Shown here: positions 1 through 11,509 of the stretch, piece after piece | Layout: every line of letters begins with the position of its first letter | How positions within the stretch are numbered: position 1 is the first letter of the stretch | DNA from: Hadesarchaea archaeon | Lineage (GTDB): Archaea; Hadarchaeota; Hadarchaeia; Hadarchaeales; Hadarchaeaceae | DNA: 11,509 bases | Assembly: GCA_030619825.1 (NCBI GenBank) | Contig: JAUXAS010000025.1 | Location: 1-11,509, forward strand | Direction: 5' to 3' | Translations under genes and position numbers: made by a program | The notes under the pieces: model-generated | Database searches by the model: none | What the model saw: the letters and a program-made list of their open reading frames with translations, nothing else | Told to the model about the DNA's origin: nothing

Positions 1-288
1 TTCCAAGACGCTGTATGATTTCTGAAAAATCCCGCTCGACAATGCACACGCCCCCGCTACGACCACAACTTTGGGCTCCTTCAGCTTGGCGTAGACTTCT
101 TTTAGCGAATCCAACATCTTCATCGTCACGACCCCCACCACAATAAGTACGTTCGCCTGTTCAGGTTCCTCCACAATCTTCGTCCTGAGTTCCCCGATGC
201 CGAACCGCGTAGCCAGCACGCTCAATACCTCAATGTCACAACCGTTACATGACCCGATGTTCAAGCGATAAACTCCGATTTCGCTCAT
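1..288 (-). CDS. Group 4 [NiFe]-hydrogenase small subunit (NuoB/MbhJ/EchC-like), 3' end outside the window
   Basis: Not in the ORF track. Manual translation from ATG at 288: MSEIGVYRLNIGSCNGCDIEVLSVLATRFGIGELRTKIVEEPEQANVLIVVGVVTMKMLDSLKEVYAKLKEPKVVVVAGACALSSGIFQKSYSVLE. It has the GSCNGCDIE and GACA motifs and an ATGA overlap with the large-subunit stop (285-288). Confidence 0.92.
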   Translation of the reverse strand, partial: MSEIGVYRLNIGSCNGCDIEVLSVLATRFGIGELRTKIVEEPEQANVLIVVGVVTMKMLDSLKEVYAKLKEPKVVVVAGACALSSGIFQKSYSVLE

Positions 289-1421
289 TTTAATCGCCTT
301 AGCTCATCTAGACTTATCTTTCTACTTCTACCGGTTCTCTCGTCCACCACAGTGATGCGGTTGGTGCAGGATATGCACCGGTCCAAGCTCTCCAATATGG
401 GCGGGAGATTGGCCAGTTTTTCCCCTACCAGCATCTCCACAACGGCGGGATTGTTTACATAGGTGGGGGGCCTGAGTTTGATGCGCTCAGGATAGTTTGT
501 CCCGTTCAGTCTAGCATAGTAGATTAGCTCCCCCCGAGGCGCCTCCACTCGGCTGAAGTCCTCCCCGACCGGCGGCTTCCCCAACTCCGCGCGTATCTCA
601 CCCTCCGGCATGCGGTCGATCAGCTGTCGAACTAATTTTATACTTTCAAAAGTTTCCCTCGCCCGCACCAATGCCCTGGAGAAGACATCACATCCGTTCT
701 CCGTCGGTACATCAAAATCAACCTCCTGGTAAGCGGCATAGGGGTCGTCTTTTCGGATGTCGCTTTTGATACCAGAAGCTCTCGACACAGGCCCCACTAC
801 TCCATACGCTCTGGCCTTATCCTTCGGAAGCAGCCCTATCCCTGAAAGTTTCGGTGCAGCGTCTTTCAAAGCTTTCATAATGTCGTCAGAAAGTTTCGTG
901 AGGTCATCCGTCAGGGTCTTGACTTTGACGAGTATCCCTCCTGACACATCACGCCTGACCCCGCCCAAGTTATTTATCGAGAAGTGTACTCGGTTGCCGC
1001 AAATGGGCTCTAACAGGTCCATCAGTCTTTCGCGTGTATCGAGAACCTGGATTAGGTGCCCGTCGTCGTGCAATGCATGAAAGAGCAGCACGAACCACAT
1101 GTAATGGCTGTGTAACCGATCCATCTCGAAGACCAGAGATCTGATGTAATTCGCCCGTTGGGGAATCTCCGCGCCGAAGATTTTTTCTACAGCTTGACAA
1201 TAAGCGGTGGAGTGGGCTTGGGAACACAGCCCACACACACGCTCGGCAAGTAGAACATCTTGACTGAGGGATTTTGACTCCATTAGACGCTCGATGCCGC
1301 GGTGTGTGTATCCTTGCTCGATACCGACATCGATGATTTTGCCATTGCGCATGGTCACCTCGTATATCTCTGGCTCCAGATTCAAGGGGTGATATGGGCC
1401 TATCTTCATGACCTCAGTCAT
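285..1421 (-). CDS. Group 4 [NiFe]-hydrogenase large subunit (NuoD/MbhL/EchE-like)
   Basis: Motifs GPYHP..LEP, GYTHRGIE, L1 ERVCGLCSQAH, EAPRGEL and L2 DRCISCTNR, followed by a C-terminal extension. All four Ni-ligating Cys are present. ATG at 1421 is preferred (GAGGA about 10 nt upstream, 1 nt after the hdrB stop); TTG at 1430 is the alternative start. Confidence 0.93.
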   Translation of the reverse strand: MTEVMKIGPYHPLNLEPEIYEVTMRNGKIIDVGIEQGYTHRGIERLMESKSLSQDVLLAERVCGLCSQAHSTAYCQAVEKIFGAEIPQRANYIRSLVFEMDRLHSHYMWFVLLFHALHDDGHLIQVLDTRERLMDLLEPICGNRVHFSINNLGGVRRDVSGGILVKVKTLTDDLTKLSDDIMKALKDAAPKLSGIGLLPKDKARAYGVVGPVSRASGIKSDIRKDDPYAAYQEVDFDVPTENGCDVFSRALVRARETFESIKLVRQLIDRMPEGEIRAELGKPPVGEDFSRVEAPRGELIYYARLNGTNYPERIKLRPPTYVNNPAVVEMLVGEKLANLPPILESLDRCISCTNRITVVDERTGRSRKISLDELRRLK

Positions 1422-1422
1422 T

Positions 1423-2289
1423 TTACCCAATCCTCGCTACTAGTTGTGATACGGGGCTTCGGTGAAACTCAAGTGACAATTCTTTCGACGGCGCACCAAA
1501 TGCCAGCGCCAAGAGCTCGACCAAGTGCAAACATGGGATCGAGAACTTGGCACTGTACCTTCTGAGGGCGAGTTGCCCTGATTCAAATTGAACATTACAC
1601 GCAGGGCAAACCACCACGATTCCATCGACCCCTATATGTTGATAACGCTCCAGTTTTGGAAGCAAGTTGTGTTTAAGCGAAAATTCTTCGTCCACATGAG
1701 ATGTCGGGAAACCACAGCACAGTTGGTCGACGTCGGAGCGGACGACCTCAGCTCCCGTAGCACTTACTAGCTCTTCGAACTGTTTAGGCTTCCTCCAAAT
1801 ATCTCTGCCGTTCTCTTCTCTGAAGAGGTGGCAACCGTGATGTACGGCAAGTTTCAATCCTAGTGGTTTTTTTACTTGATTTTTTATCGCTTCAATCCCG
1901 ACATCCTCGTGGAGAACCTCAACGACATGCCTGACATTTATCGTCCCGTTATATTTCCTTCCCACCTTGGCCAAGAGTTCATTTATCTCCCTACTGGTTT
2001 CCCCCCGCTTCATGAACTCGTTGGCCTCCCAGAGTGTCTCGTAACAACCGTTACACAACACCACGACATCTAGGCCTTGCCCTTCCGCTATGCTCAGATT
2101 CCTTGCTGACATGGATAGCGCGACCTTTCTGTCCATCAAGCGTGCTAGAATTGGGTCCGGGCAGCAGGTGTAGCCCGTCATCTCCGCAATCTCGAGCCCG
2201 AGTGAATTGAAGACCTTGTGCGTGGCAAGCTCAGCGCTCGGAAGCCGCTGAGGGATCATGCAACCCAAGAAAAGCGCGTATTTCTTCAC
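1423..2289 (-). CDS. hdrB: Heterodisulfide reductase subunit B (two CCG domains)
   Basis: Two complete five-Cys CCG motifs: FLGCMIP...TCCPDP...LCNGCY and HHGCH...LCCGF...VCPACN. 288 aa, MKKYALFLGC N-terminus typical of HdrB, GTGA overlap with the upstream gene. Confidence 0.92.
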   Translation of the reverse strand: MKKYALFLGCMIPQRLPSAELATHKVFNSLGLEIAEMTGYTCCPDPILARLMDRKVALSMSARNLSIAEGQGLDVVVLCNGCYETLWEANEFMKRGETSREINELLAKVGRKYNGTINVRHVVEVLHEDVGIEAIKNQVKKPLGLKLAVHHGCHLFREENGRDIWRKPKQFEELVSATGAEVVRSDVDQLCCGFPTSHVDEEFSLKHNLLPKLERYQHIGVDGIVVVCPACNVQFESGQLALRRYSAKFSIPCLHLVELLALAFGAPSKELSLEFHRSPVSQLVARIG

Positions 2290-2957
2290 TTTTTCACCCC
2301 CCTCAGTTTCTTCCGCTTCCAGTCATAGCCAGCCTGCCTGCTGAAGTTCGTCTGCCTGATGAGTTCGTGAACCTCTTTAAGCTGGGACTCGTTCGAATAG
2401 CTGGCCGGCGGTTGTGGTGGAAGTCCCGCTTCCACCCGCCTTCGTTTCATTAAGGAGGATATAGGCGCGGTGGCCCCGACGGTAATAACAGCTTCTGCAA
2501 CCGGGCCGATTTCGTCAGGGAGTTTGGATTTGAAGGGCTTGCCCAATGGAAAAGTGCCCTCCGGCAATTTGTCCGATAAGACCAGATGTCCCGGTTTGGG
2601 ATGATCTCTGAATCTTACCCCGCACAGCTCTGCTGCCTCGTTTTCTGCCCATTCCGCTGTAGGGGTCAGGTCAGCTACAGTATCGATCTCGGGTTTCTCT
2701 TTCCCCAATTTCACTCTCAACACTACGACTTTACCCTCCAAATCAAAATGGTACAGAAGGTCTATGTCCAGCCCCGCATCGACAGCAGCTATAATGATTA
2801 ACCTCGCTCCCTTGCAGAGCAAGGTCTCAGCGGCTTTCCTTATTATGTCCGGAGCTATTTCGGCCGACACCTTTCGCACTCGAGGTGTGACCACACTTAA
2901 GAGTCCATCTGGGATGTTTTTCTCCAAGAGTTCAACTATCTCGGCTTCCTCCATCAT
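2286..2957 (-). CDS. NuoC/MbhK-like hydrogenase subunit fused to an HdrC-C-terminus-like tail
   Basis: The N-terminal ~145 aa has complex I 30-kDa-subunit motifs (VD...LLYHF, AEWAENEAAELCGVRFRDHP, FPL). The C-terminal ~77 aa is extra. Start placed at ATG 2957 (ATGA overlap with the upstream stop, GGTGA SD-like motif nearby) rather than 3035. Confidence 0.85.
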   Translation of the reverse strand: MMEEAEIVELLEKNIPDGLLSVVTPRVRKVSAEIAPDIIRKAAETLLCKGARLIIIAAVDAGLDIDLLYHFDLEGKVVVLRVKLGKEKPEIDTVADLTPTAEWAENEAAELCGVRFRDHPKPGHLVLSDKLPEGTFPLGKPFKSKLPDEIGPVAEAVITVGATAPISSLMKRRRVEAGLPPQPPASYSNESQLKEVHELIRQTNFSRQAGYDWKRKKLRGVKK

Positions 2958-3427
2958 CTCACCCGCAAATAGCGGCTCCGTGCGAACTCGAGCGCTTCGG
3001 CACGGGTTCCAACCCTGATCGCTTGAGGGGAACAATACTTGGCGCAGTTCGGGTCACCATCGCAGAAATTGCACTTGGTTGCGATACGGTGTTCCTCGTC
3101 GAACCACGCTGCGGCGATTGGACAAGCGTAGGTACAGGAGCGGCAACCAGTACACTTCATGGGGTTTATCATCACCCATCCCGTGGCTTCGTCCTTGGTG
3201 ATAGCATCAACCGGGCAAGCGGCGGCGCACACAGGGTCCTCGCAGTGCAGACAGTTGGTCGCCTCGCGCGCAAATTTCTGATCGTCAATGAAAACATGGA
3301 TGTGGGATTTCTCAGGGTTGAGGGTGCCGAAGTTCTTGTAGGCACACGCAATCTCACAGTACCGGCAACCTGTACATCGCTCCGAGTCGTAAATCAGCAC
3401 GAGCTGCTCGGCTTTGGGCTTCTCCAA
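2954..3427 (-). CDS. 4x[4Fe-4S] iron-sulfur protein (DmsB/HycB/CooF-like)
   Basis: 16 Cys in four groups: CTGCRYCEIAC, CLHCEDPVCAAACP, CTGCRSCTYACP, CNFCDGDPNCAKYC. TTG start with AGGGG upstream. Confidence 0.92.
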   Translation of the reverse strand: MEKPKAEQLVLIYDSERCTGCRYCEIACAYKNFGTLNPEKSHIHVFIDDQKFAREATNCLHCEDPVCAAACPVDAITKDEATGWVMINPMKCTGCRSCTYACPIAAAWFDEEHRIATKCNFCDGDPNCAKYCSPQAIRVGTRAEALEFARSRYLRVR

Positions 3428-3490: not shown

Positions 3491-4429
3491 TTAAATGAAC
3501 TCTTCGCCCGGCCTCCACTCGAAGAGCTCCTGGATCATCGTGTAAGCTGCCGAGGGTGGGATTATGCCCCGCTCGGTTATAATGAGGTCAATGTAATCGG
3601 GCGGCGTGACATCAAAGACCGGGTTACGAATTTTCAAGCCTGGGAAGCGCTTAGGGTTGATGATCTCCTTGGGAGAGCGCTCCTCGATCTCGACAAGCCT
3701 CCCCACGAGCGTCCCAGGATGGAACTTGTAACTCTCTGCGGCGACGAAGAATAACACTCGAGCCTCGTGAGCGGTGAGGGCGATCTGTGCGGTCCCTATC
3801 TTGTTGATCACCGCTCCATTTGCCGCGATGCTGTCCGCACCAACGATGACCTTGTCAATGTCTCGGATGAAATAGCGCACAGCTGAGTCAACGATGAGGG
3901 TGGTGGGAATGTCAGCTTTTTTCAGGTCTCGTACACTTATCAAACCCTGTCGGCTCGGACGAGACTCTGTGACGAATACTTGGATGCGCTTGCCCTTCTC
4001 GAAAGCCGTCTTGATTACCGCTAGCGCGCTGTGGCTGTTGCAGTGAGTAAGCACTACATCGCCATCAGAGATGCGACGCGCGCCGATTTCACCTATTCGC
4101 TCGACAGCTTTCTTTGAATCTCGAATAAACTCGTCCACACGAGAGATGACTCCCCTCTGAAGCGTCTGCAGGTCGGCCCCTCTCGCTCGCTTCGCACCAA
4201 GCGTGACGTAGCGGATCGCGTTGGGAAGCGAGACCGCTGTTGGGCGGGTAGCTAGCAAAAGTTTTGAAACGCGATCGAGCTCCCTCGCGAACTCAGCTGG
4301 AGTCTTGGCTCGAGTCGTCTTTGTAGTGATTTTCAAGGCCCGGGCCGCAGCGCGAGCGATCCTTCCGGCGCCGCGTATGCGCATCGTTTGGATATCCCGC
4401 GCGATTTGCTTGACCTCATCGTGCGCCAT
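3491..4429 (-). CDS. e2b2: Ribose-1,5-bisphosphate isomerase (eIF2B-like family)
   Basis: MRIRGAGRIA, TRPTAVSLPNA, LTHCNS (catalytic Cys), ESRP, VGADSI (catalytic Asp), NKIGT, NPVFDVTPP and ITERG match the archaeal R15Pi pattern. Confidence 0.9.
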   Translation of the reverse strand: MAHDEVKQIARDIQTMRIRGAGRIARAAARALKITTKTTRAKTPAEFARELDRVSKLLLATRPTAVSLPNAIRYVTLGAKRARGADLQTLQRGVISRVDEFIRDSKKAVERIGEIGARRISDGDVVLTHCNSHSALAVIKTAFEKGKRIQVFVTESRPSRQGLISVRDLKKADIPTTLIVDSAVRYFIRDIDKVIVGADSIAANGAVINKIGTAQIALTAHEARVLFFVAAESYKFHPGTLVGRLVEIEERSPKEIINPKRFPGLKIRNPVFDVTPPDYIDLIITERGIIPPSAAYTMIQELFEWRPGEEFI

Positions 4430-4463
4430 GATTTCCCCTAATTTCTATCTATACCTGTACCCA

Positions 4464-4478
4464 AACTTAAACCAATCG
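4464..4478 (-). promoter_or_regulatory. Putative TATA box for the R15P isomerase gene
   Basis: Minus strand CGATTGGTTTAAGTT, with TTTAAG at 4471-4466 about 37 nt upstream of the ATG. AGGGG SD-like motif before the start. Confidence 0.4.
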
Positions 4479-4483
4479 GGATT

Positions 4484-4714
4484 TCACTTGGGAAGGCGGC
4501 GCCGCAGCTCATTGAGGAAAATCTGCCCATCTGTTTTGCGTGTGGTGTCAGCTTCGGCTGAAATCGCCTGCCTGAGCCCCTCGATGAACACCTCAATACC
4601 TGCACTCTCACCAAGCATTCGTTCGATTAGGCTTCGGAGCTCCTGTGGATAAGCAAGGTATGGCATGACCGATGAGAATGAATCTCGAACGAGTTTTGCC
4701 TCAGCTTCCTGCAT
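4484..4714 (-). CDS. Hypothetical small helical protein (76 aa)
   Basis: Fills the gap between the Lrp gene and R15Pi, starts 8 nt after the Lrp stop with an AGGTG SD, and has an amphipathic helical pattern. No recognised motif. Confidence 0.7.
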   Translation of the reverse strand: MQEAEAKLVRDSFSSVMPYLAYPQELRSLIERMLGESAGIEVFIEGLRQAISAEADTTRKTDGQIFLNELRRRLPK

Positions 4715-4722
4715 TTCAGCAC

Positions 4723-5163
4723 CTAGAGGTTCAAAAGACGCTCCTTGATGGTTTCCATTGCCACGATAGTTCGGACGCTCTTCACCGAGTCGAATGACTG
4801 GATGCGGTCGTCAACGAACTTTTTCAAGCTTTCCACGTCGCGGGCACGTACCTTCAACATCAATCCATGGCCCCCCGTCGTGTGATGAAGCTCGCACACC
4901 TGGTGGCAGTGTGACAGCGAGCGGACGAGCTCGCGCATGCTCCTGCTATCGACATCGATGCTGACGAAAGCCATCACCCCATAGCCAAATTTTTGAGGGT
5001 CTATTAGCGCTGAATATTGTTTGATCAGACCGAAGCGCTCAAGCTGCTTGACCCGTCGCCTCACCCCAGAAGTGCTGAGGCCGACCTCGCGCCCCATCTT
5101 GCGCAGTGAAACATGTGCGTCATCGCTCAGCATCTTTAAAAGTTTCATGTCGACGCTATCCAC
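4723..5163 (-). CDS. Lrp/AsnC family transcriptional regulator
   Basis: MDSVDMKLLKMLSDDAHVSLRKMGREVGLSTSGVRRRVKQLERFGLIKQY HTH, then an IDPQKFGY linker and RAM domain. GTG start with GGTGGTGA SD. Confidence 0.93.
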   Translation of the reverse strand: MDSVDMKLLKMLSDDAHVSLRKMGREVGLSTSGVRRRVKQLERFGLIKQYSALIDPQKFGYGVMAFVSIDVDSRSMRELVRSLSHCHQVCELHHTTGGHGLMLKVRARDVESLKKFVDDRIQSFDSVKSVRTIVAMETIKERLLNL

Positions 5164-5207
5164 GCTTCACCACCCAGCCAGCCTTGTAATTAGTTGGTGC
5201 GCTTTGG

Positions 5208-5223
5208 TTATTTAATTTTTGCG
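5208..5223 (-). promoter_or_regulatory. Putative BRE/TATA promoter of the Lrp gene
   Basis: Minus strand CGCAAAAATTAAATAA: A-rich BRE followed by TTAAATA. Confidence 0.55.
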
Positions 5224-5239
5224 GGAAAATTTTTGTGCG

Positions 5240-6751
5240 TCAAAGCTGAATTACTTTTAGTTTTTTCCCTACATCTTTGCACGCTTCAACGAGTGATTTA
5301 CCCCATCGCCGCTCGTCGTTGAACAGTAGAACTCGTTCGTAGTGCCCACCATACCTCTCGAGGAAGCGAGAGAGGCCTTCGGCCACCGATTTTATCTGCA
5401 TCGCGTCAAGCTCGCGGGGCACCTGAAACTGCCCGAGCGGGTATATCTCCTCGAGCTCCTCGGGGACGGCGCCAAATGGAGGTACGAGCCTCACGAGGTG
5501 GGTTCGCTCAGGTTCTTCGAGCTTCGGCCGCTCTTTCCCAAAAGCGGGCAAAAGCGCTAAGATGGGCAGCTGGGGCGGCTCATATCGCCCATTAAGTCTA
5601 CTCCAGGAACGCACGACCTCTGGGCGATTCACCGACTCCTCACCGAGGTAGCAGAATGCCGAGGGCTTGGTCACGGGATCAAACCTCTCGAGGAAATCCC
5701 GATACCTCGCCAACCTCCGAAGCCCATCGAGCAGCCGCGGATGGGCACGACATCGCAGCTCAACGTGCTCTCCCAGACTTCCCTCCACGATTGCTTGGCG
5801 AATGCGCCGCAGTTCGCCAAAGGTAACATGAAGATTGTGCCTAGCCAAGAGCTTGACCCGTTCGTCCTGCGGAACACGCCTGAGCTCATCGGGTGAATGC
5901 TCCGCACAAATAGGGCACTCACATGGTAGGTAAGATAACTCCTCGAGGTGAAAGGTCCCCTCTGAAGTCATGTAACGCCCGTCACGTGCATAGAGCACGT
6001 ATGCAGCGGAGTCGAAGAGGTCGCAGCCCATCGCCACGGCGAGGGCGAACATCATGGGGTGCCCAGCGCCAAAAAGATGCGTGGGGCGATCGAGTGGCAG
6101 GTATTGCTTCGCAGTCATGACGAGATCGACGAGTTTCGCGTAGCGATATCCCTCCAGCAACTCGACGGGGCTTCCAATCGCGTGCAGTTGATAGTCGAGT
6201 TTCCCAACCTCGCGTGCGCTCTGGGCGACCAACTCGCTGAAGAGGCCCCCCTGCACCGGCCCGCACCACATCAACTTGGGATTAGACCTGAGTTCGACTG
6301 CTTGTCTGGCTCGCTCAAGCGTTATCCGCACCGTTTCGGCTGCACGCTCCTTGGTCGCTTGAACACCAGTCGGGACATCGAGGATAGTCGCGATATCTGG
6401 GGCAATCGCATCTTGGTAGCGCACGATTTCTTCAGGTGAAACTTCGACGTCCCCATAGCGCAGGATTTGGTAGCCGCCCGAGTCGGTCATGATTGGACCC
6501 TCATAGCTGAGCGCACCGTGAACCCCTTGCTTCGCGGCTTCCTCGCCGAAGTGACGAAGCATCAGGTAGGCGTTGGTCATCACCAGTTCAACGCCGAACT
6601 CGCGCCGCATCTGGTTGGGTGATAGAATTACGTCCAATGGATCGATGACAGGCATGAGGGTCGGGGTTGTCACATCGCCGTGGGGGGTGCTAAGTTTACC
6701 CACTCGACCCATGCCATCGCGGTACAAGATTTGGAAGATGGTATCGACCAT
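5240..6751 (-). CDS. tgtA: Archaeosine tRNA-guanine(15) transglycosylase, PUA-less form
   Basis: GRVGKL..PHG..TP.LMPV, TNAY, MTDSGGYQ (catalytic Asp), LDVP, VQGG, HLFGAGHPM, GCDLFDSAAY, Zn site CECPIC...HNL, and RCRAHP. Confidence 0.93.
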   Translation of the reverse strand: MVDTIFQILYRDGMGRVGKLSTPHGDVTTPTLMPVIDPLDVILSPNQMRREFGVELVMTNAYLMLRHFGEEAAKQGVHGALSYEGPIMTDSGGYQILRYGDVEVSPEEIVRYQDAIAPDIATILDVPTGVQATKERAAETVRITLERARQAVELRSNPKLMWCGPVQGGLFSELVAQSAREVGKLDYQLHAIGSPVELLEGYRYAKLVDLVMTAKQYLPLDRPTHLFGAGHPMMFALAVAMGCDLFDSAAYVLYARDGRYMTSEGTFHLEELSYLPCECPICAEHSPDELRRVPQDERVKLLARHNLHVTFGELRRIRQAIVEGSLGEHVELRCRAHPRLLDGLRRLARYRDFLERFDPVTKPSAFCYLGEESVNRPEVVRSWSRLNGRYEPPQLPILALLPAFGKERPKLEEPERTHLVRLVPPFGAVPEELEEIYPLGQFQVPRELDAMQIKSVAEGLSRFLERYGGHYERVLLFNDERRWGKSLVEACKDVGKKLKVIQL

Positions 6752-6801
6752 TACAACTTTAAATAATTCTTACAAAGACCTTCCGCTTAAAATCTGAAGG
6801 C

Positions 6802-8013
6802 TCAACAAACCGGGATTTTTCCTTCGGCGAGGTCCATGCAGAATTTGTCGATGTGCTCGAGTTCCACGTCTACCACTTCCGCTATCTTCCCCCGGACGCT
6901 CTCGATCGTGGTGCCAGGCTTCGTGATGACCCGGGCGACGGCGATCGCAGGGTCATCGATGGGTTTCCCTATCTGACTAACCAACCAAACGTAAACCTCA
7001 TTCAATCCCGAAACTTGACTGTAGATTTTATTCGCGATTCGGTGCGTGAGCAAATTGTAAATCTTGCCCACATGGCTAACGGGATTCTTGCCCGCCGCCG
7101 CCTCCGAGCCCACATGGCGGTTGAGTGGGATCACGCCGTTGGGACGATTGCCCCTCCCAACTTGACCTGAGTCCGCCCCATCAGCGCTCGTCCCAAGCAC
7201 GGTGAGGTAAACCCCTCCGACGCCCCGTCCACGTACATCAAGGGTGTTTAGATCGAGCGTGAATTTTTTGACATCAGAATTCTCCTCCACGAAGGTGCGC
7301 AGCCGCTCTAGGATCTCCCCCTTCTTCCTGAAGTAATCATCCTCGCTCTCCACGAATCGGTCAACGAAAGCCATCCCCAGGGTTAGATAGAGCTCGTCGT
7401 TCTTTCGAAACCCCATCACCTTTACGTCCTCACCAGACTCCGGGAACTCCTTCTTGAACTCCTTTGAGTTGAGGTAGCGCTCAGTCTTCAGTACTAACTG
7501 TTCGGTCCAAGTCATGGGCGCGTAGCTGACTGCAGCTGAAGTATCGTTAGCGCTAAACACCCTGCCCTTCCGCTTGAAGATATCAGTGAGTGCCGCAGAG
7601 CCGGGTCTGAGTTCTACCTGGTAGCGCATGTGCTTTTCCGGATCGACAAACCTCAAATTTTCTTTTACCCAATTCTTCGCCGCGTGAACCGCGATGTCCT
7701 TTACTGATATCCTAATCCCCTCAACCTCCTTGGTCGCCCGGTCTCCAAAGATCAAAAGCATCGGTTGCTTCACTTCGCCACCACCAAATCTCGTTTCGAC
7801 CTCTCCAGCGACGAGCAGCGACTTGTCGGCATTGTGGTGCATAATCGCGCCAAACTTTTTCAAATACTCCTTACTTAACTCGACTGAAACTCGATCCAAA
7901 ATCGCATCACATATAGAGTCGGGGTGCCCGAGGCCCTTTCGCTCAACAATCTCCAATTTCTGCTTCTCGAGAGGTTCCTGCTTGAACTCCTCGACGATTA
8001 TGTTTCGTGCCAA
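6802..8013 (-). CDS. mat: Archaeal S-adenosylmethionine synthetase
   Basis: VERKGLGHPDSICD, HHNADK, ANDTS, GEDVKVMG, YLTVLGTSA, DSGQVGRGNR, EAAAGKNPVSHVGKIYN and SQIGKPIDDP. TTG start. Confidence 0.96.
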   Translation of the reverse strand: MARNIIVEEFKQEPLEKQKLEIVERKGLGHPDSICDAILDRVSVELSKEYLKKFGAIMHHNADKSLLVAGEVETRFGGGEVKQPMLLIFGDRATKEVEGIRISVKDIAVHAAKNWVKENLRFVDPEKHMRYQVELRPGSAALTDIFKRKGRVFSANDTSAAVSYAPMTWTEQLVLKTERYLNSKEFKKEFPESGEDVKVMGFRKNDELYLTLGMAFVDRFVESEDDYFRKKGEILERLRTFVEENSDVKKFTLDLNTLDVRGRGVGGVYLTVLGTSADGADSGQVGRGNRPNGVIPLNRHVGSEAAAGKNPVSHVGKIYNLLTHRIANKIYSQVSGLNEVYVWLVSQIGKPIDDPAIAVARVITKPGTTIESVRGKIAEVVDVELEHIDKFCMDLAEGKIPVC

Positions 8014-8046
8014 GTTTACGCCTCGCGGATTTTCGGTCTGCGAGCG

Positions 8047-8078
8047 AGTTATTTATAGCTTTTGTTCAAAATATAACT
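8047..8078. promoter_or_regulatory. Divergent promoter region between mat and the HTH-CBS gene
   Basis: Minus strand AACAAAAG-CTATAAATA (BRE+TATA toward mat). Plus strand has TTTATA (8052-8057) and AATATAA (8070-8076). Contains the inverted repeat TTTTG-TT-CAAAA. Confidence 0.55.
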
Positions 8079-8098
8079 AGCAGGAATTGGCGATCTCG

Positions 8099-8680
8099 AT
8101 GCGAATTTTGAAACCATCCGAAGTGAAGGTGATGCGCACGAGGATGGGGCTTACCCAAGTGCAGCTGGCGGAACTGGCGGGCGTTACCCAAGCATACATC
8201 GCAAAGATTGAAGCCGGCACCGCAGACCCCCGAATCTCCACTCTCGAGAGAATCTCCAAGGCGCTCGAGCGGGCAACGACCGAGGAAAAGCGTGTGACCG
8301 TTGGGCAGATAATGGCCTCGCCAATAGTGGCCGTCAAGTCCGATGATCGGATAGAAAAGGCAATCCGTCTCATGAAATCCTACGATATCTCACAGCTACC
8401 CGTGCTCGATGGTGAAGCTCAAGTGGGATCAATATCTGAGGCGACGATCGTACACAAAATCGCCGCGGGTGAAAACATGCACAAGCTGCTAAGGTACAGC
8501 ATCAGCGAGATGATGGAGGGCCCGTTCCCGACGGTGGGCGAGGATGTCGATGTCGACGTCATCTACCCCCTGCTCGAACACGAACCCGCAGTCCTCGTTA
8601 TGGAACATGGGAAAGTGGCTGGGATTATCACCAAAGCTGATCTGTTCAAGCTAGCTGGAAAACCGCGAACTAAAAGCTGA
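8099..8680 (+). CDS. XRE-type HTH transcriptional regulator with C-terminal CBS pair (COG3620-like)
   Basis: R.RMGLTQVQLAELAGVTQAYIAKIEAGTADPRISTL HTH, then two CBS domains (ISQLPVLD..VGSISE; AVLV...VAGIITKADL). Start is ATG 8099 or TTG 8087. Confidence 0.92.
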   Translation: MRILKPSEVKVMRTRMGLTQVQLAELAGVTQAYIAKIEAGTADPRISTLERISKALERATTEEKRVTVGQIMASPIVAVKSDDRIEKAIRLMKSYDISQLPVLDGEAQVGSISEATIVHKIAAGENMHKLLRYSISEMMEGPFPTVGEDVDVDVIYPLLEHEPAVLVMEHGKVAGIITKADLFKLAGKPRTKS

Positions 8681-8729
8681 GCGTTCCTGATATTTTTATC
8701 CCTGACCCCCAGATTAGTAATGGTGTACC

Positions 8730-9443
8730 ATGGCTGAAGTGAGGGAAAGGATCGCGCGATGGATCGCCGGCGACATAACCATTTCCGACGACCCTGGGGA
8801 AGCCTTCAAGCGCTGGCGGGAGCGATTCGGGATGAGTCAGACCTTGCTCGCCAAGGTAATGCGCGTCTCCCCCTCGGTAATCAGCGATTACGAGGCCGGG
8901 CGGAGGAAATCACCCGGGGCCGCGACCATCAAGCGTATGGTTGACGCCTTCCTTAAGGTTGATGAGCAACAGGGCGGGAAGGTGTCCAATACCTTCGCCA
9001 AAGTGTTCGGCACCCAGTTGCCGCCCGATGTCGTGCTTGAAATCCGAGAGTTTGGCGAGCCTACCAATGGGAAGACCATCTGCAAAGCGGTCGATGGTGA
9101 TGTCGCCGCCAATAAGGACCTACTCAGCCAGAAGCTCTTCGGCTACACTATCATCGACAGCTACAAGGCAGTGTTGGGGCTCTCCGTCGACGATTTCAGA
9201 CGCCTCTACGGGCTGACCACCGAGCGGGCGCTGGTTTTCACCGGCGTGACGACGGGGCGTTCCCCCATGGTGGCAGTGAAGGTGATCGGGATAACCCCAG
9301 GGATGGTGATCTTGCATGGCGAGCTCAAACGCGTCGACGCGCTGGGGGTAAAAATAGCCGAGCTCCTGCGCGTTCCTCTCGTGACCTCGAGGCTGCCGTC
9401 CGTGGGCGACCTGCTCGAGGGGCTCCGGAAGTGTGCCCGCTAA
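8730..9443 (+). CDS. Archaeal HTH transcriptional regulator (COG1709-like, HTH plus DRTGG-like domain)
   Basis: [24 protein letters not shown]....[17 protein letters not shown], then [42 protein letters not shown]-like box at 8693-8700. Confidence 0.88.
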
Positions 9444-9465
9444 CCCCCAACGGCAATCGCCGATG

Positions 9466-9472
9466 TTTTTTT
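9466..9472 (+). terminator. Possible oligo-T terminator
   Basis: T7 run 22 nt after the stop at 9443. Confidence 0.4.
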
Positions 9473-9479
9473 CGACAAT

Positions 9480-9494
9480 CGAAAGGCTTTTATT
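9480..9494 (+). promoter_or_regulatory. Putative BRE/TATA promoter of the HMG-CoA synthase-thiolase operon
   Basis: CGAAAGG-CTTTTATT, with an AGGTGA SD at 9541-9546 before the ATG at 9554. Confidence 0.6.
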
Positions 9495-9553
9495 GCTCTC
9501 GCTTAAGCATAGACACAAAAATTGGTGTTCGAAATAAAAAAGGTGACTCACTG

Positions 9554-10600
9554 ATGGACGTTGGTGTAGTTGGCTACGGTGTTTACATCCCCAAGTACCG
9601 CATCCGAGTCGAGGAAATAGCTAAAGTCTGGGGGGACGACCCCGAGAGCGTCAAGCGTGGACTTTTGATCGAGGAAAAATCCGTCCCGGCACCCGATGAG
9701 GACACCGCCACCATCGCGGTCGAGGCCGCACGCAACGCTTTGAAACAGACCGGCATCGACCCGCATGACATCGAAGCGATTTACGTCGGCTCGGAATCCC
9801 ACCCATATGCGGTCAAACCCACCGCAACTATCGTAGCGGAGGCCATCGAGGCCACTCCAGACCTCACCGCCGCCGACTATGAATTCGCCTGCAAGGCTGG
9901 CACCGTGGGCATCCAAACCTGCATGGGGGCTGTCGAGGCTGGCATGATAAAATACGGCATGGCGATTGGGTCGGACACCGCCCAGAGCGCACCAGGGGAT
10001 GCCCTTGAATACACCGCTGCGGCCGGGGGTTGCGCCTTTATCGTGGGTAGGAACGGGAGCAAGACCCTAGCTGCGATCGAGGACACTTACTCCTACACTA
10101 CCGACACCCCCGACTTCTGGCGCCGGGAGATGCGGTCCTACCCGAAGCACGGAGGGCGATTCACCGGAAAGCCGGGCTACTTCAAACACGTACTCGCCGC
10201 GGCCAACGGCTTGCTTCGCAAGCTCCAGCTTACCCCTCAAGATTTCGCGCACGTGGTCTTCCACCAACCCAACGGAAAATTCCCCCTGCTAGCTGCCAAG
10301 GAGCTCGGCTTCTCGAAGGAGCAGGTGGCACCCGGTCTGCTGGTGTCTAAAATAGGCAACACCTATTCTGGATCGACCATGATTGGTCTCGCCGCGGTTC
10401 TCGACCAAGCCAAACCCGAGGAGCGAATCCTCGCGGTCTCCTATGGTTCAGGCGCCGGGAGTGATGCATTCAGCATCATCGTGCGCGACGGCATCGAGGG
10501 CAAACGGGATGCTGCGCCCAAGGTGCTTGACTACGTGGGTCAGAGGGTTATCATCGACTACGCAACCTACGCGAAATTCAGGAAGTTACTGGTGAAGTAA
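9554..10600 (+). CDS. Hydroxymethylglutaryl-CoA synthase (archaeal type)
   Basis: [44 protein letters not shown] (catalytic Cys), [23 protein letters not shown] and SYGSGAGSD. Start placed at ATG 9554 after AGGTGA, not 9431. Confidence 0.96.
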
Positions 10601-11509
10601 ATGCGCGATGTCGCAGTGATAGGTGTGGGCCTGACGAAGTTCGGCGAGCTCTGGGATGTTTCGTTCAGGCAGATGATGATGGAAGCGGGTGCCCGAGCGA
10701 TCGAGGATGCTGGAATCGACGGCAAACAAATCGATGCGATGTATGTAGGGAATATGTCCTCTGGACAATTTATCCGCCAAGAGCACATCTCCTCCATCGT
10801 CGCGGACCACGCGGGGCTCGTGCCCATTCCCTCAACGCGCGTCGAAGGGGCCTGCGCGTCGGACGGGCTGGCGCTCCGTCAAGCAGTGATCGCCGTGGCT
10901 TCAGGTATCCATGACATCATCGTTGCAGGTGGTATAGAAAAAATGACTGATGTGCTGACCGGACAAGCAACGGGAGCACTCGCGACCGCCGCCGACCAGG
11001 AGTGGGAGATATTCGTGGGCGCCACTTTCCCGGGCCTCTACGCGCTGATGGCTCGCCGCCACATGTACGAGTTCGGGACTACCGAGGAGCAGATGGCGAT
11101 GGTTGCGGTCAAAAACCACCACAACGCGTGCTTCAACACATGCGCGCAATATAAAATGGAAATAACCGTCGAAGATGTGTTGAAATCGCCGGTGGTTACC
11201 TCGCCCATAAAATTGCTCGATTGCTCCCCGATCACCGACGGCGCCGCCTGTGTGATTCTCGCCCCAGCGGAGAAGGCGCGGAAGTTCACCGATACCCCTA
11301 TCGTGGTCACCGGGACCGGGCAAGCGAGCGACACCATCTCGCTCCATGGCCGCTCCTCGCTCACGAGCATACGGGCTACCACCGAAGCGGCGCAGACGGC
11401 GTACAAGATGGCTCGTGTCAAGCCGGATGACATCGACCTCGTGGAAGTTCACGACTGCTTCACCATCGCGGAGATCATGGCGATCGAGGACCTAGGCTTC
11501 TGCAAGAAG
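10601..11509 (+). CDS. Acetoacetyl-CoA thiolase (archaeal SCP2-like), 3' end outside the window
   Basis: Not in the ORF track. Open frame from the ATG directly after the [25 protein letters not shown]...RVEGACAS (Cys85)...GGIEKMTD...[14 protein letters not shown]...VAVKNHHN...[10 protein letters not shown]...[20 protein letters not shown]. Confidence 0.95.

Follow-up and report, generated by a model that had tools for sequence, protein, structure and literature searches.

Several group-4 hydrogenases linked to HdrB are known from genomes, namely, Ehd, Ehe, Ehg, and Drh (PMC9723716, PMC12700198, PMC6046458, bioRxiv 10.1101/2022.08.18.504445). Ehd with "HdrBC" is one proposed answer to coenzyme regeneration in the HdrA-less methyl-reducing methanogens of the Thermoproteota; its EhdD/hdrC genes carry the tags Metus_0142 and EF809_01580 (supplement of PMC9723716), and the drhH gene of Drh is listed between hdrB and drhB (PMC9723716). 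In HdrABC, the clusters of HdrC pass electrons to HdrB (PMC13518236, PMC12054007), and a role in binding CoM and in transferring protons has been proposed for the HdrC residues T79, Y81, Y84, E94, and K98 (PMC13518236, Extended Data Fig. 6 legend).

We analyzed an 11,509-nucleotide stretch of DNA from a Hadesarchaea archaeon (hereafter the window), in which five overlapping minus-strand genes encode, in order, an Fe-S protein, a NuoC domain fused to an HdrC-like tail, HdrB, and the large and small subunits of a hydrogenase. The first gene (2954..3427) encodes a HycB/DmsB/HydN-like protein of 157 amino acid residues with 16 cysteines and four cluster motifs. The start of the fusion gene (P0001; 2286..2957; 223 residues) overlaps the stop of the Fe-S gene, and its stop overlaps the start of hdrB, which follows directly (1423..2289; 288 residues, two CCG domains). 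HdrB keeps all the cluster cysteines as well as E88 and H154, the equivalents of E87 and H154, and the loop behind its second CCG domain is FP, not AGGG. The large subunit (285..1430) matches PF00346 and PF00374, is of the group-4 type with a C-terminal extension, and has both Ni-binding CxxC motifs (ERVCGLC and DRCISC). With regard to the group-4 small, NuoC, and NuoI-like subunits, the NuoB-like small subunit (1..288) starts in the window and is truncated by the contig end, and the NuoI-like part is seen in relatives, in which the small subunit closes the operon and carries a NuoI-like 2x[4Fe-4S] domain on the same chain (about 295 aa). No NuoH or antiporter gene was found upstream in the window or downstream in complete relatives.

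Beside the operon, positions 3491-11509 of the window form a conserved housekeeping block, which has the same position in several relatives and contains genes for an IF-2B-family protein, an Lrp/AsnC regulator, an archaeosine-type TGT, a SAM synthetase, two HTH proteins, HMG-CoA synthase, and thiolase. One related operon has a 486-residue ORF between its large- and small-subunit genes (L022:5838-7295, genome G016), presumably for a protein resembling the IS200/IS605 TnpB type. Another soluble operon (L038, genome G060) lies directly behind a complete membrane-type group-4 hydrogenase cluster. In three Bathyarchaeia loci (L048, L050, L069), an ordinary hdrC-hdrB pair stands right behind the soluble operon, so that two HdrB paralogues with different partners coexist.

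The source genome (89% complete) yielded no other HdrC, no other CCG protein, and no match to McrA or to ComA (searched as the CoM route), and CODH was not found in it. It also encodes a second, membrane-type group-4 hydrogenase cluster. A 780-residue ORF of this genome (G000:C21:4340-6679), which contains four ferredoxin motifs and ends in an MvhD domain, appears HdrA-like from the look of its sequence; neither a full HdrC nor a third large subunit of a hydrogenase is present beside it in the genome.

Architecture of the NuoC fusion and its predicted contact with HdrB

Residues 1-142 of the fusion (2532..2957, minus strand) constitute a NuoC/MbhK/HycE-N 30-kDa domain. PF00329 matches residues 34-143 of the 223-residue ORF (E = 1.4e-16, 61.6 bits against a Pfam cut-off of 22.5), and the best Foldseek matches of this half are 7Z0S_E, complex I NuoC, and 6CFW_K. 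Residues 137-140 (2538..2549) read PLGK, a degenerate version of the NuoC-terminal PLRK motif. The tail, a cysteine-free HdrC C-terminal domain according to sequence and fold and a predicted HdrB clamp according to complex modeling, comprises residues 147-223 and the stop codon (2286..2519), in agreement with the first-pass annotation, which had described a NuoC domain continued by about 77 residues. The peptide quoted there for the tail is indeed HdrC-like, but it corresponds to residues 157-218 (62 aa) and leaves out the 14 residues behind PLGKPF and the last five. The fusion contains two cysteines, C48 and C112, and the 77-residue tail none; inspection of the cysteines over all 223 residues showed that the two [4Fe-4S] ferredoxin motifs of HdrC are absent, as had been claimed.

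Pfam has no family for the tail. Searched alone against NCBIfam, the 77 residues matched solely TIGR03290 (HdrC), at positions 88-142 of 144 with E = 3.3e-6 and about 25-27 bits, far under the family cut-off of 160 bits. The top four hits of a PDB sequence search were HdrC chains (8RVU_c, residues 119-183, E = 4e-5), and a profile of 27 family members matched residues 106-183 of 5ODC_C with E = 7.2e-14. The AlphaFold2 model of the fusion (pLDDT 91.6) displays a NuoC fold followed by helices at residues 148-160, 168-176, 190-202, and 205-209; residues 141-223 modeled by themselves gave a pLDDT of 84. The fold evidence for the tail comes from Foldseek, in which the first seven of the 15 matches to the latter model were HdrC chains (best TM 0.76, rmsd 1.7-1.8 Å over 73 residues), the remaining eight having E above 6. 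ESM Atlas gave no usable feature match for the tail or for the free-standing adaptor described below, and its structure rows were below the naming bar. The claimed similarity of the tail to HdrC C termini is significant by family model, profile, and fold.

A first search returned 41 homologues of the fusion under the names Hadarchaeum or Hadarchaeales. A contig from an independent run spans 2107-2983 without gaps and with seven differences, and the NuoC-tail junction is intact in it. Contigs from RNA libraries (four runs, one study) span 1932-3396, a cover that is no proof of transcription; they did not extend over the genes of the large and small subunits, from which nothing follows. Judged by its sequence, the fusion protein belongs to the NuoC family and, because it has no clusters, is not an HdrC; the models suggest that it works like the HdrB-binding half of HdrC.

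The C-terminal part of HdrC reportedly contacts HdrB. The proposed interface between the tail and HdrB was predicted with confidence: a model of HdrB with residues 141-223 had an ipSAE of 0.83 compared with 0.00 for the best of three controls, a score that may echo the HdrBC complex, which is already solved, and that therefore shows likeness, not binding of this copy. Of 157 solved complexes, 116 attained the ipSAE mark, as did 2 of 215 mismatched pairs. The runs agreed in at least 90% of contacts, and the partner pLDDT was at least 79, compared with 35 when HdrB was replaced. The predicted interface of 109-118 contacts places tail residues 149-209 on HdrB residues 8-63, 105-111, 198-199, 272, and 275, and the tail is thereby predicted to bind the N-terminal CCG domain of HdrB. 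Conservation was not enriched at the interface in the tail (0.52 versus 0.53, p = 0.70) or in HdrB (0.62 versus 0.64, p = 0.75); near-invariant positions are R174, G178, L179, and E195 of the tail and E20 and R63 of HdrB.

Linkage to hdrB and the free form of the tail

Full-length fusions were found in 15 of 66 genomes of Hadarchaeota, 43 of 301 of the Bathyarchaeia class (45 matches at E ≤ 1e-55, two of them partial), 4 of 62 of the class of genome G066, and 5 of 251 in a Methylomirabilota sample; fusion records also occur in Asgardarchaeum, "Desulfurococcales", and Thermoplasmata. The GTDB scan covered 30 of 64 parts, and 80 of 593 loci were taken from it, with the large subunit rather than hdrB as the criterion of choice. 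Linkage was counted over distinct sequences from loci L021-L236, and the counts are patterns, not statistics, because kin among them are not independent. hdrB is the next gene in 47 of the 48 fused copies, the last one being cut by the contig end, and behind all 25 free tails. The 96 tail-less NuoC divide into 71 without any hdrB within 4 kb and 25 whose loci contain both hdrB and a free tail. Eight further free Asgard tails, fetched later, all have hdrB next. When the best 30 of 47 Bathyarchaeia fusion matches were followed, some of which overlap with the earlier loci, 29 had hdrB next and the other lies 40 bases from a contig end. The most divergent fused group, which is inside the 48, has hdrB next in four of five metagenome loci, the fifth being cut. 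In Hadarchaeota, the 15 fusion genomes are the 15 with the best HdrB matches of the 66, and the genes are adjacent in all of them. The expected co-occurrence of the tail-bearing NuoC with an adjacent hdrB is thus observed, with exceptions at contig ends only. At the level of the genes, the findings are evidence that HdrB belongs to these hydrogenases as a true subunit and is not a mere neighbor.

The 48 distinct fused genes comprise 33 of the soluble type, which share a small::NuoI fusion without NuoH and form a separate clade, 8 accompanied by NuoH and antiporter genes, and 7 that are cut short. Four rows were left out of the counts: L151 (a cut copy of a full HdrC), L273 (a broken full HdrC), L278 (a full HdrC), and L229 (tail score <25 bits). 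At L229:5552-9386 (genome G121), a weak, motif-less, tail-like ORF precedes hdrB with no hydrogenase nearby; this hdrB unit is divergent from an Fe-S gene and another gene, which we take to be aldehyde-oxidoreductase-like, and in the tree the HdrB of this locus falls immediately beyond the adaptor group. A divergent fused group (P0106, P0187, P0342-P0358) has conserved tail cysteines (PPLC..xCP), unlike the rest of the family. In six Methylomirabilota loci (L080, L096, L162-L165), the small::NuoI gene of the soluble operon has moved to the front. The large subunits of these bacteria fall together with those of Bathyarchaeia (support 97), which suggests transfer from archaea.

A gene of its own, about 85-120 aa long and placed between the Fe-S gene and hdrB, encodes the tail in Hermodarchaeota, in other Asgard archaea, and in many genomes of the G066 class. 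All 25 free tails start with the motif [YHF]P[LW][RK][KR], and the NuoC domains of the same loci (25 of 25) lack the motif and end at LPxxWP, just short of its position. The eight free-tail loci fetched later display the same motif and the same break in NuoC. Ordinary tail-less NuoC away from hdrB has the motif in 71 of 71 cases (69 strictly), and the fused copies have it in strict form in 23 of 48 and in relaxed form in 25, the version here being PLGK. By analogy with complex I-type structures, this motif would bind the hydrogenase core. From these sequences, the free tail is likely a fission product of the fused gene, with the YPLRK motif leaving together with the tail, and fission would likely have given a two-sided adaptor, one end on the hydrogenase core and the other on HdrB.

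Phylogenetic trees were built by quick searches without bootstrap and include non-independent kin; six duplicate loci were left out of the soluble-clade tree and one long-branch row out of the monophyly test. In the HdrB tree, one group (35 rows, SH-aLRT 94) unites the HdrBs that go with a cluster-less tail, apart from those with a full HdrC. The free forms make up one group (91 in the HdrB tree, 97-98 in the large-subunit trees), as do the soluble fused forms (support 100), which lie beside the free-adaptor clade (97) in the large-subunit tree. In the large-subunit tree test, the fused forms as one clade were not rejected (p-AU 0.143), so that the order of fusion and then fission follows from the break point, not from the tree. 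A candidate loss of tail and hdrB together in L040 was not supported; L040 groups with Ehg. In five loci (L099, L104, L160, L167, L171), split-form membrane clusters stand directly behind genes weakly matching small and large hydrogenase subunits, which are probably a second, Mvh-type hydrogenase.

In the history that we propose, HdrC would have lost its ferredoxin half and joined NuoC once, and one lineage would later have split the gene just before YPLRK, whence the free-standing "HdrC" that Ehd, Ehe, and Asgard loci encode. We lean, with a little more belief than doubt, toward a joint reading in which all HdrB-clamped hydrogenases form one family that goes back to one ancient chimera of NuoC and HdrC, with soluble members in Hadarchaeota, Bathyarchaeia, and Methylomirabilota and membrane-bound ones in Asgard archaea and Thermoproteota; in which the split form is the "HdrC" of Ehd and Ehe and probably of Drh; and in which electrons reach HdrB by a route unlike that of any solved Hdr and the soluble form reduces a non-methanogen disulfide with H2.

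A proposed HdrB-clamped hydrogenase and its alternatives

It is highly probable, in our assessment, that NuoC sits on the hydrogenase core and the tail holds HdrB in a soluble five-subunit enzyme. NuoC with its PLRK end would bind the core of large subunit, small subunit, and NuoI domain, as in complex I. Electrons would pass from the [NiFe] site to the small subunit, then to the NuoI domain, the four-cluster protein, or both, and from there directly to HdrB; because the tail has no clusters, they must bypass it via the NuoI domain or the four-cluster protein. The 16-cysteine protein, whose gene stands upstream of the fusion or the free tail in nearly all loci, is likely part of this electron wire. 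Because HdrC residues 79-98 precede the part that was kept (106-183) and are hence absent, catalysis may differ. The net reaction would most likely be H2 + R-S-S-R' → two thiols, and no ion pumping is expected because there is no membrane arm. The tethering of HdrB to the hydrogenase by such an arm, the central idea of the first-pass annotation, is thus supported by modeling, but the arm belongs to a family spread across several phyla and not to this locus alone.

Because none of the 15 fusion genomes has a match to McrA or AcrA and an FP/YP loop replaces AGGG in HdrB, the Hadarchaeales substrate is probably not CoM-S-S-CoB. The Ehd HdrBs of methanogen lineages likewise deviate from the AGGG loop. 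A tie to alkane-oxidizing Hadarchaeota was considered and rejected, since McrA/AcrA matches occur in 5 of the 66 genomes and none of these five belongs to the 15 with the fusion; the available portions of the literature on these archaea describe no such cluster. These findings would point to a disulfide of another kind in abundant subsurface archaea without Mcr.

We favor H2-driven disulfide reduction as the reasonably probable direction. The same clamped complex could run in reverse, oxidizing thiols, for example lipoyl carriers, and releasing H2, which we regard as unlikely, though worth serious attention. Group-4 enzymes usually evolve H2, which counts for this direction, and the source genome encodes GcvH, but its gene is on a contig other than that of the operon. 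The gap between CoM-S-S-CoB, at -281 mV (PMC12054007), and H2 is small and by our estimate could be closed at a few Pa H2; such very low H2 would be needed, however, and no energy input is available without a membrane arm. Published models favor disulfide reduction, although they are themselves proposals (PMC9723716).

It is quite improbable that the clamp is real but that the apparently soluble module docks on the membrane arm of the other group-4 hydrogenase of the cell and thereby conserves energy, the role proposed for Ehd. The second membrane-type cluster of the source genome, the adjacency of the two clusters in G060, and the NuoH and antiporter genes in 8 of 48 fused loci are in line with such docking. 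By contrast, the second cluster has a set of its own of small-subunit, NuoC, large-subunit, and NuoI genes, a second NuoC was not seen in 5 of the 15 genomes with the fusion (79-92% complete), and the 33 soluble loci form their own clade with a distinct small::NuoI fusion and no NuoH.

The tail might instead mostly complete or stabilize the HdrB fold, with NuoC gripping the hydrogenase loosely and forming no durable tether. The large predicted interface, the tail pLDDT of 35 in the control without HdrB, and the relaxed PLRK motif of 25 of 48 fused copies would fit this explanation. The NuoC domain, however, is full-length and well folded in the model, and the NuoC-derived motif is kept in all 33 free tails, the only sensible reading of which is that the tail must also grip the core; we therefore consider a fold-stabilizing role very improbable. 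Finally, a chance match of the tail to HdrC or an assembly join of two genes, for which the modest single-sequence E-values of the tail might speak, is counted as refuted by the profile match (E = 7e-14), the fold match, the conservation across phyla, and the junction intact in the independent run.

Comparison with known systems

The tail resembles HdrC (TIGR03290; chain C of PDB 5ODC, 8RVU, and 7BKB) in its homology to the C-terminal residues 106-183, with a TM of 0.76, and the fusion gene, like hdrC, lies directly ahead of hdrB, with HdrB binding predicted for its product. The fusion differs from HdrC in that NuoC replaces the ferredoxin half, and both the clusters and residues 79-98 are missing. 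According to the models, the cluster-less tail could hold HdrB, but could neither pass electrons on nor contact HdrA as HdrC is known to do. Compared with the NuoC/MbhK/HycE N-terminal domain (PF00329), the fusion has the same domain and fold and adds about 80 residues.

Ehg (Nezhaarchaeia) is likewise a group-4 cluster with hdrB, and loci of the Ehg gene order were found, but its HdrC is full, with eight cysteines, and its NuoC has no tail and retains the motif; it may resemble the state before fusion. Drh (Methanocella) is an HdrB-linked enzyme of the group-4 type without an antiporter subunit, for which coupling of H2 and disulfide is proposed, as for the operon here, and is set apart by its description as membrane-associated and by a different gene order (PMC9723716, PMC6046458). 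drhH is a candidate for the free adaptor of Drh.

Ehd (Methanomethylicia) and Ehe (Culexarchaeia; PMC9723716, citing Borrel 2019) share with the operon here a group-4 hydrogenase, hdrB, an Fe-S gene, and an HdrC-derived piece in one cluster. In them the tail is free (92-127 aa), NuoC and the large subunit form one protein, and genes for NuoH and an antiporter are present, whereas the operon here has the tail on NuoC, NuoI on the small subunit, and no membrane genes, antiporter genes included, and its large subunit falls outside the Ehd/Ehe group in the separate soluble clade. EhdD as the fused protein, which would fit the gene order of L093, was rejected because the canonical loci have a free tail and a NuoC-large fusion. 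Metus_0142 and EF809_01580 belong to members of free-tail 90% clusters (117 and 127 aa), other members of which are named "hdrC-like protein", and EheH/"HdrC?" matches the free tail by position. As judged from these assignments, the published EhdD/"HdrC" is a free-standing copy of the iron-free tail, which would be unable to carry electrons itself.

The literature surveyed, with Borrel 2019, Lyu & Lu 2015, and Wagner 2017 outside its scope, described neither a fusion of NuoC with HdrC nor the lack of clusters nor the passage of the motif to the tail; in their available portions, PMC6421429 mentions neither Ehd nor HdrB, and PMC10811742, PMC11297162, and PMC12350162 hold nothing bearing on the fusion. 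The claim that the chimera was undescribed accordingly stands for the fusion but not for the free form, which the EhdD/hdrC tags and the "hdrC-like protein" names show to have been noticed already. If the "HdrC" of Ehd has no clusters, the models of coenzyme regeneration built on it need another electron path, and the adaptor of 90-120 aa offers a handle for testing that path. The fusion is a probable clamp variant among HdrB-linked hydrogenases already known from genomes, and its membrane-free five-gene version is the simplest member of the family to express and solve.
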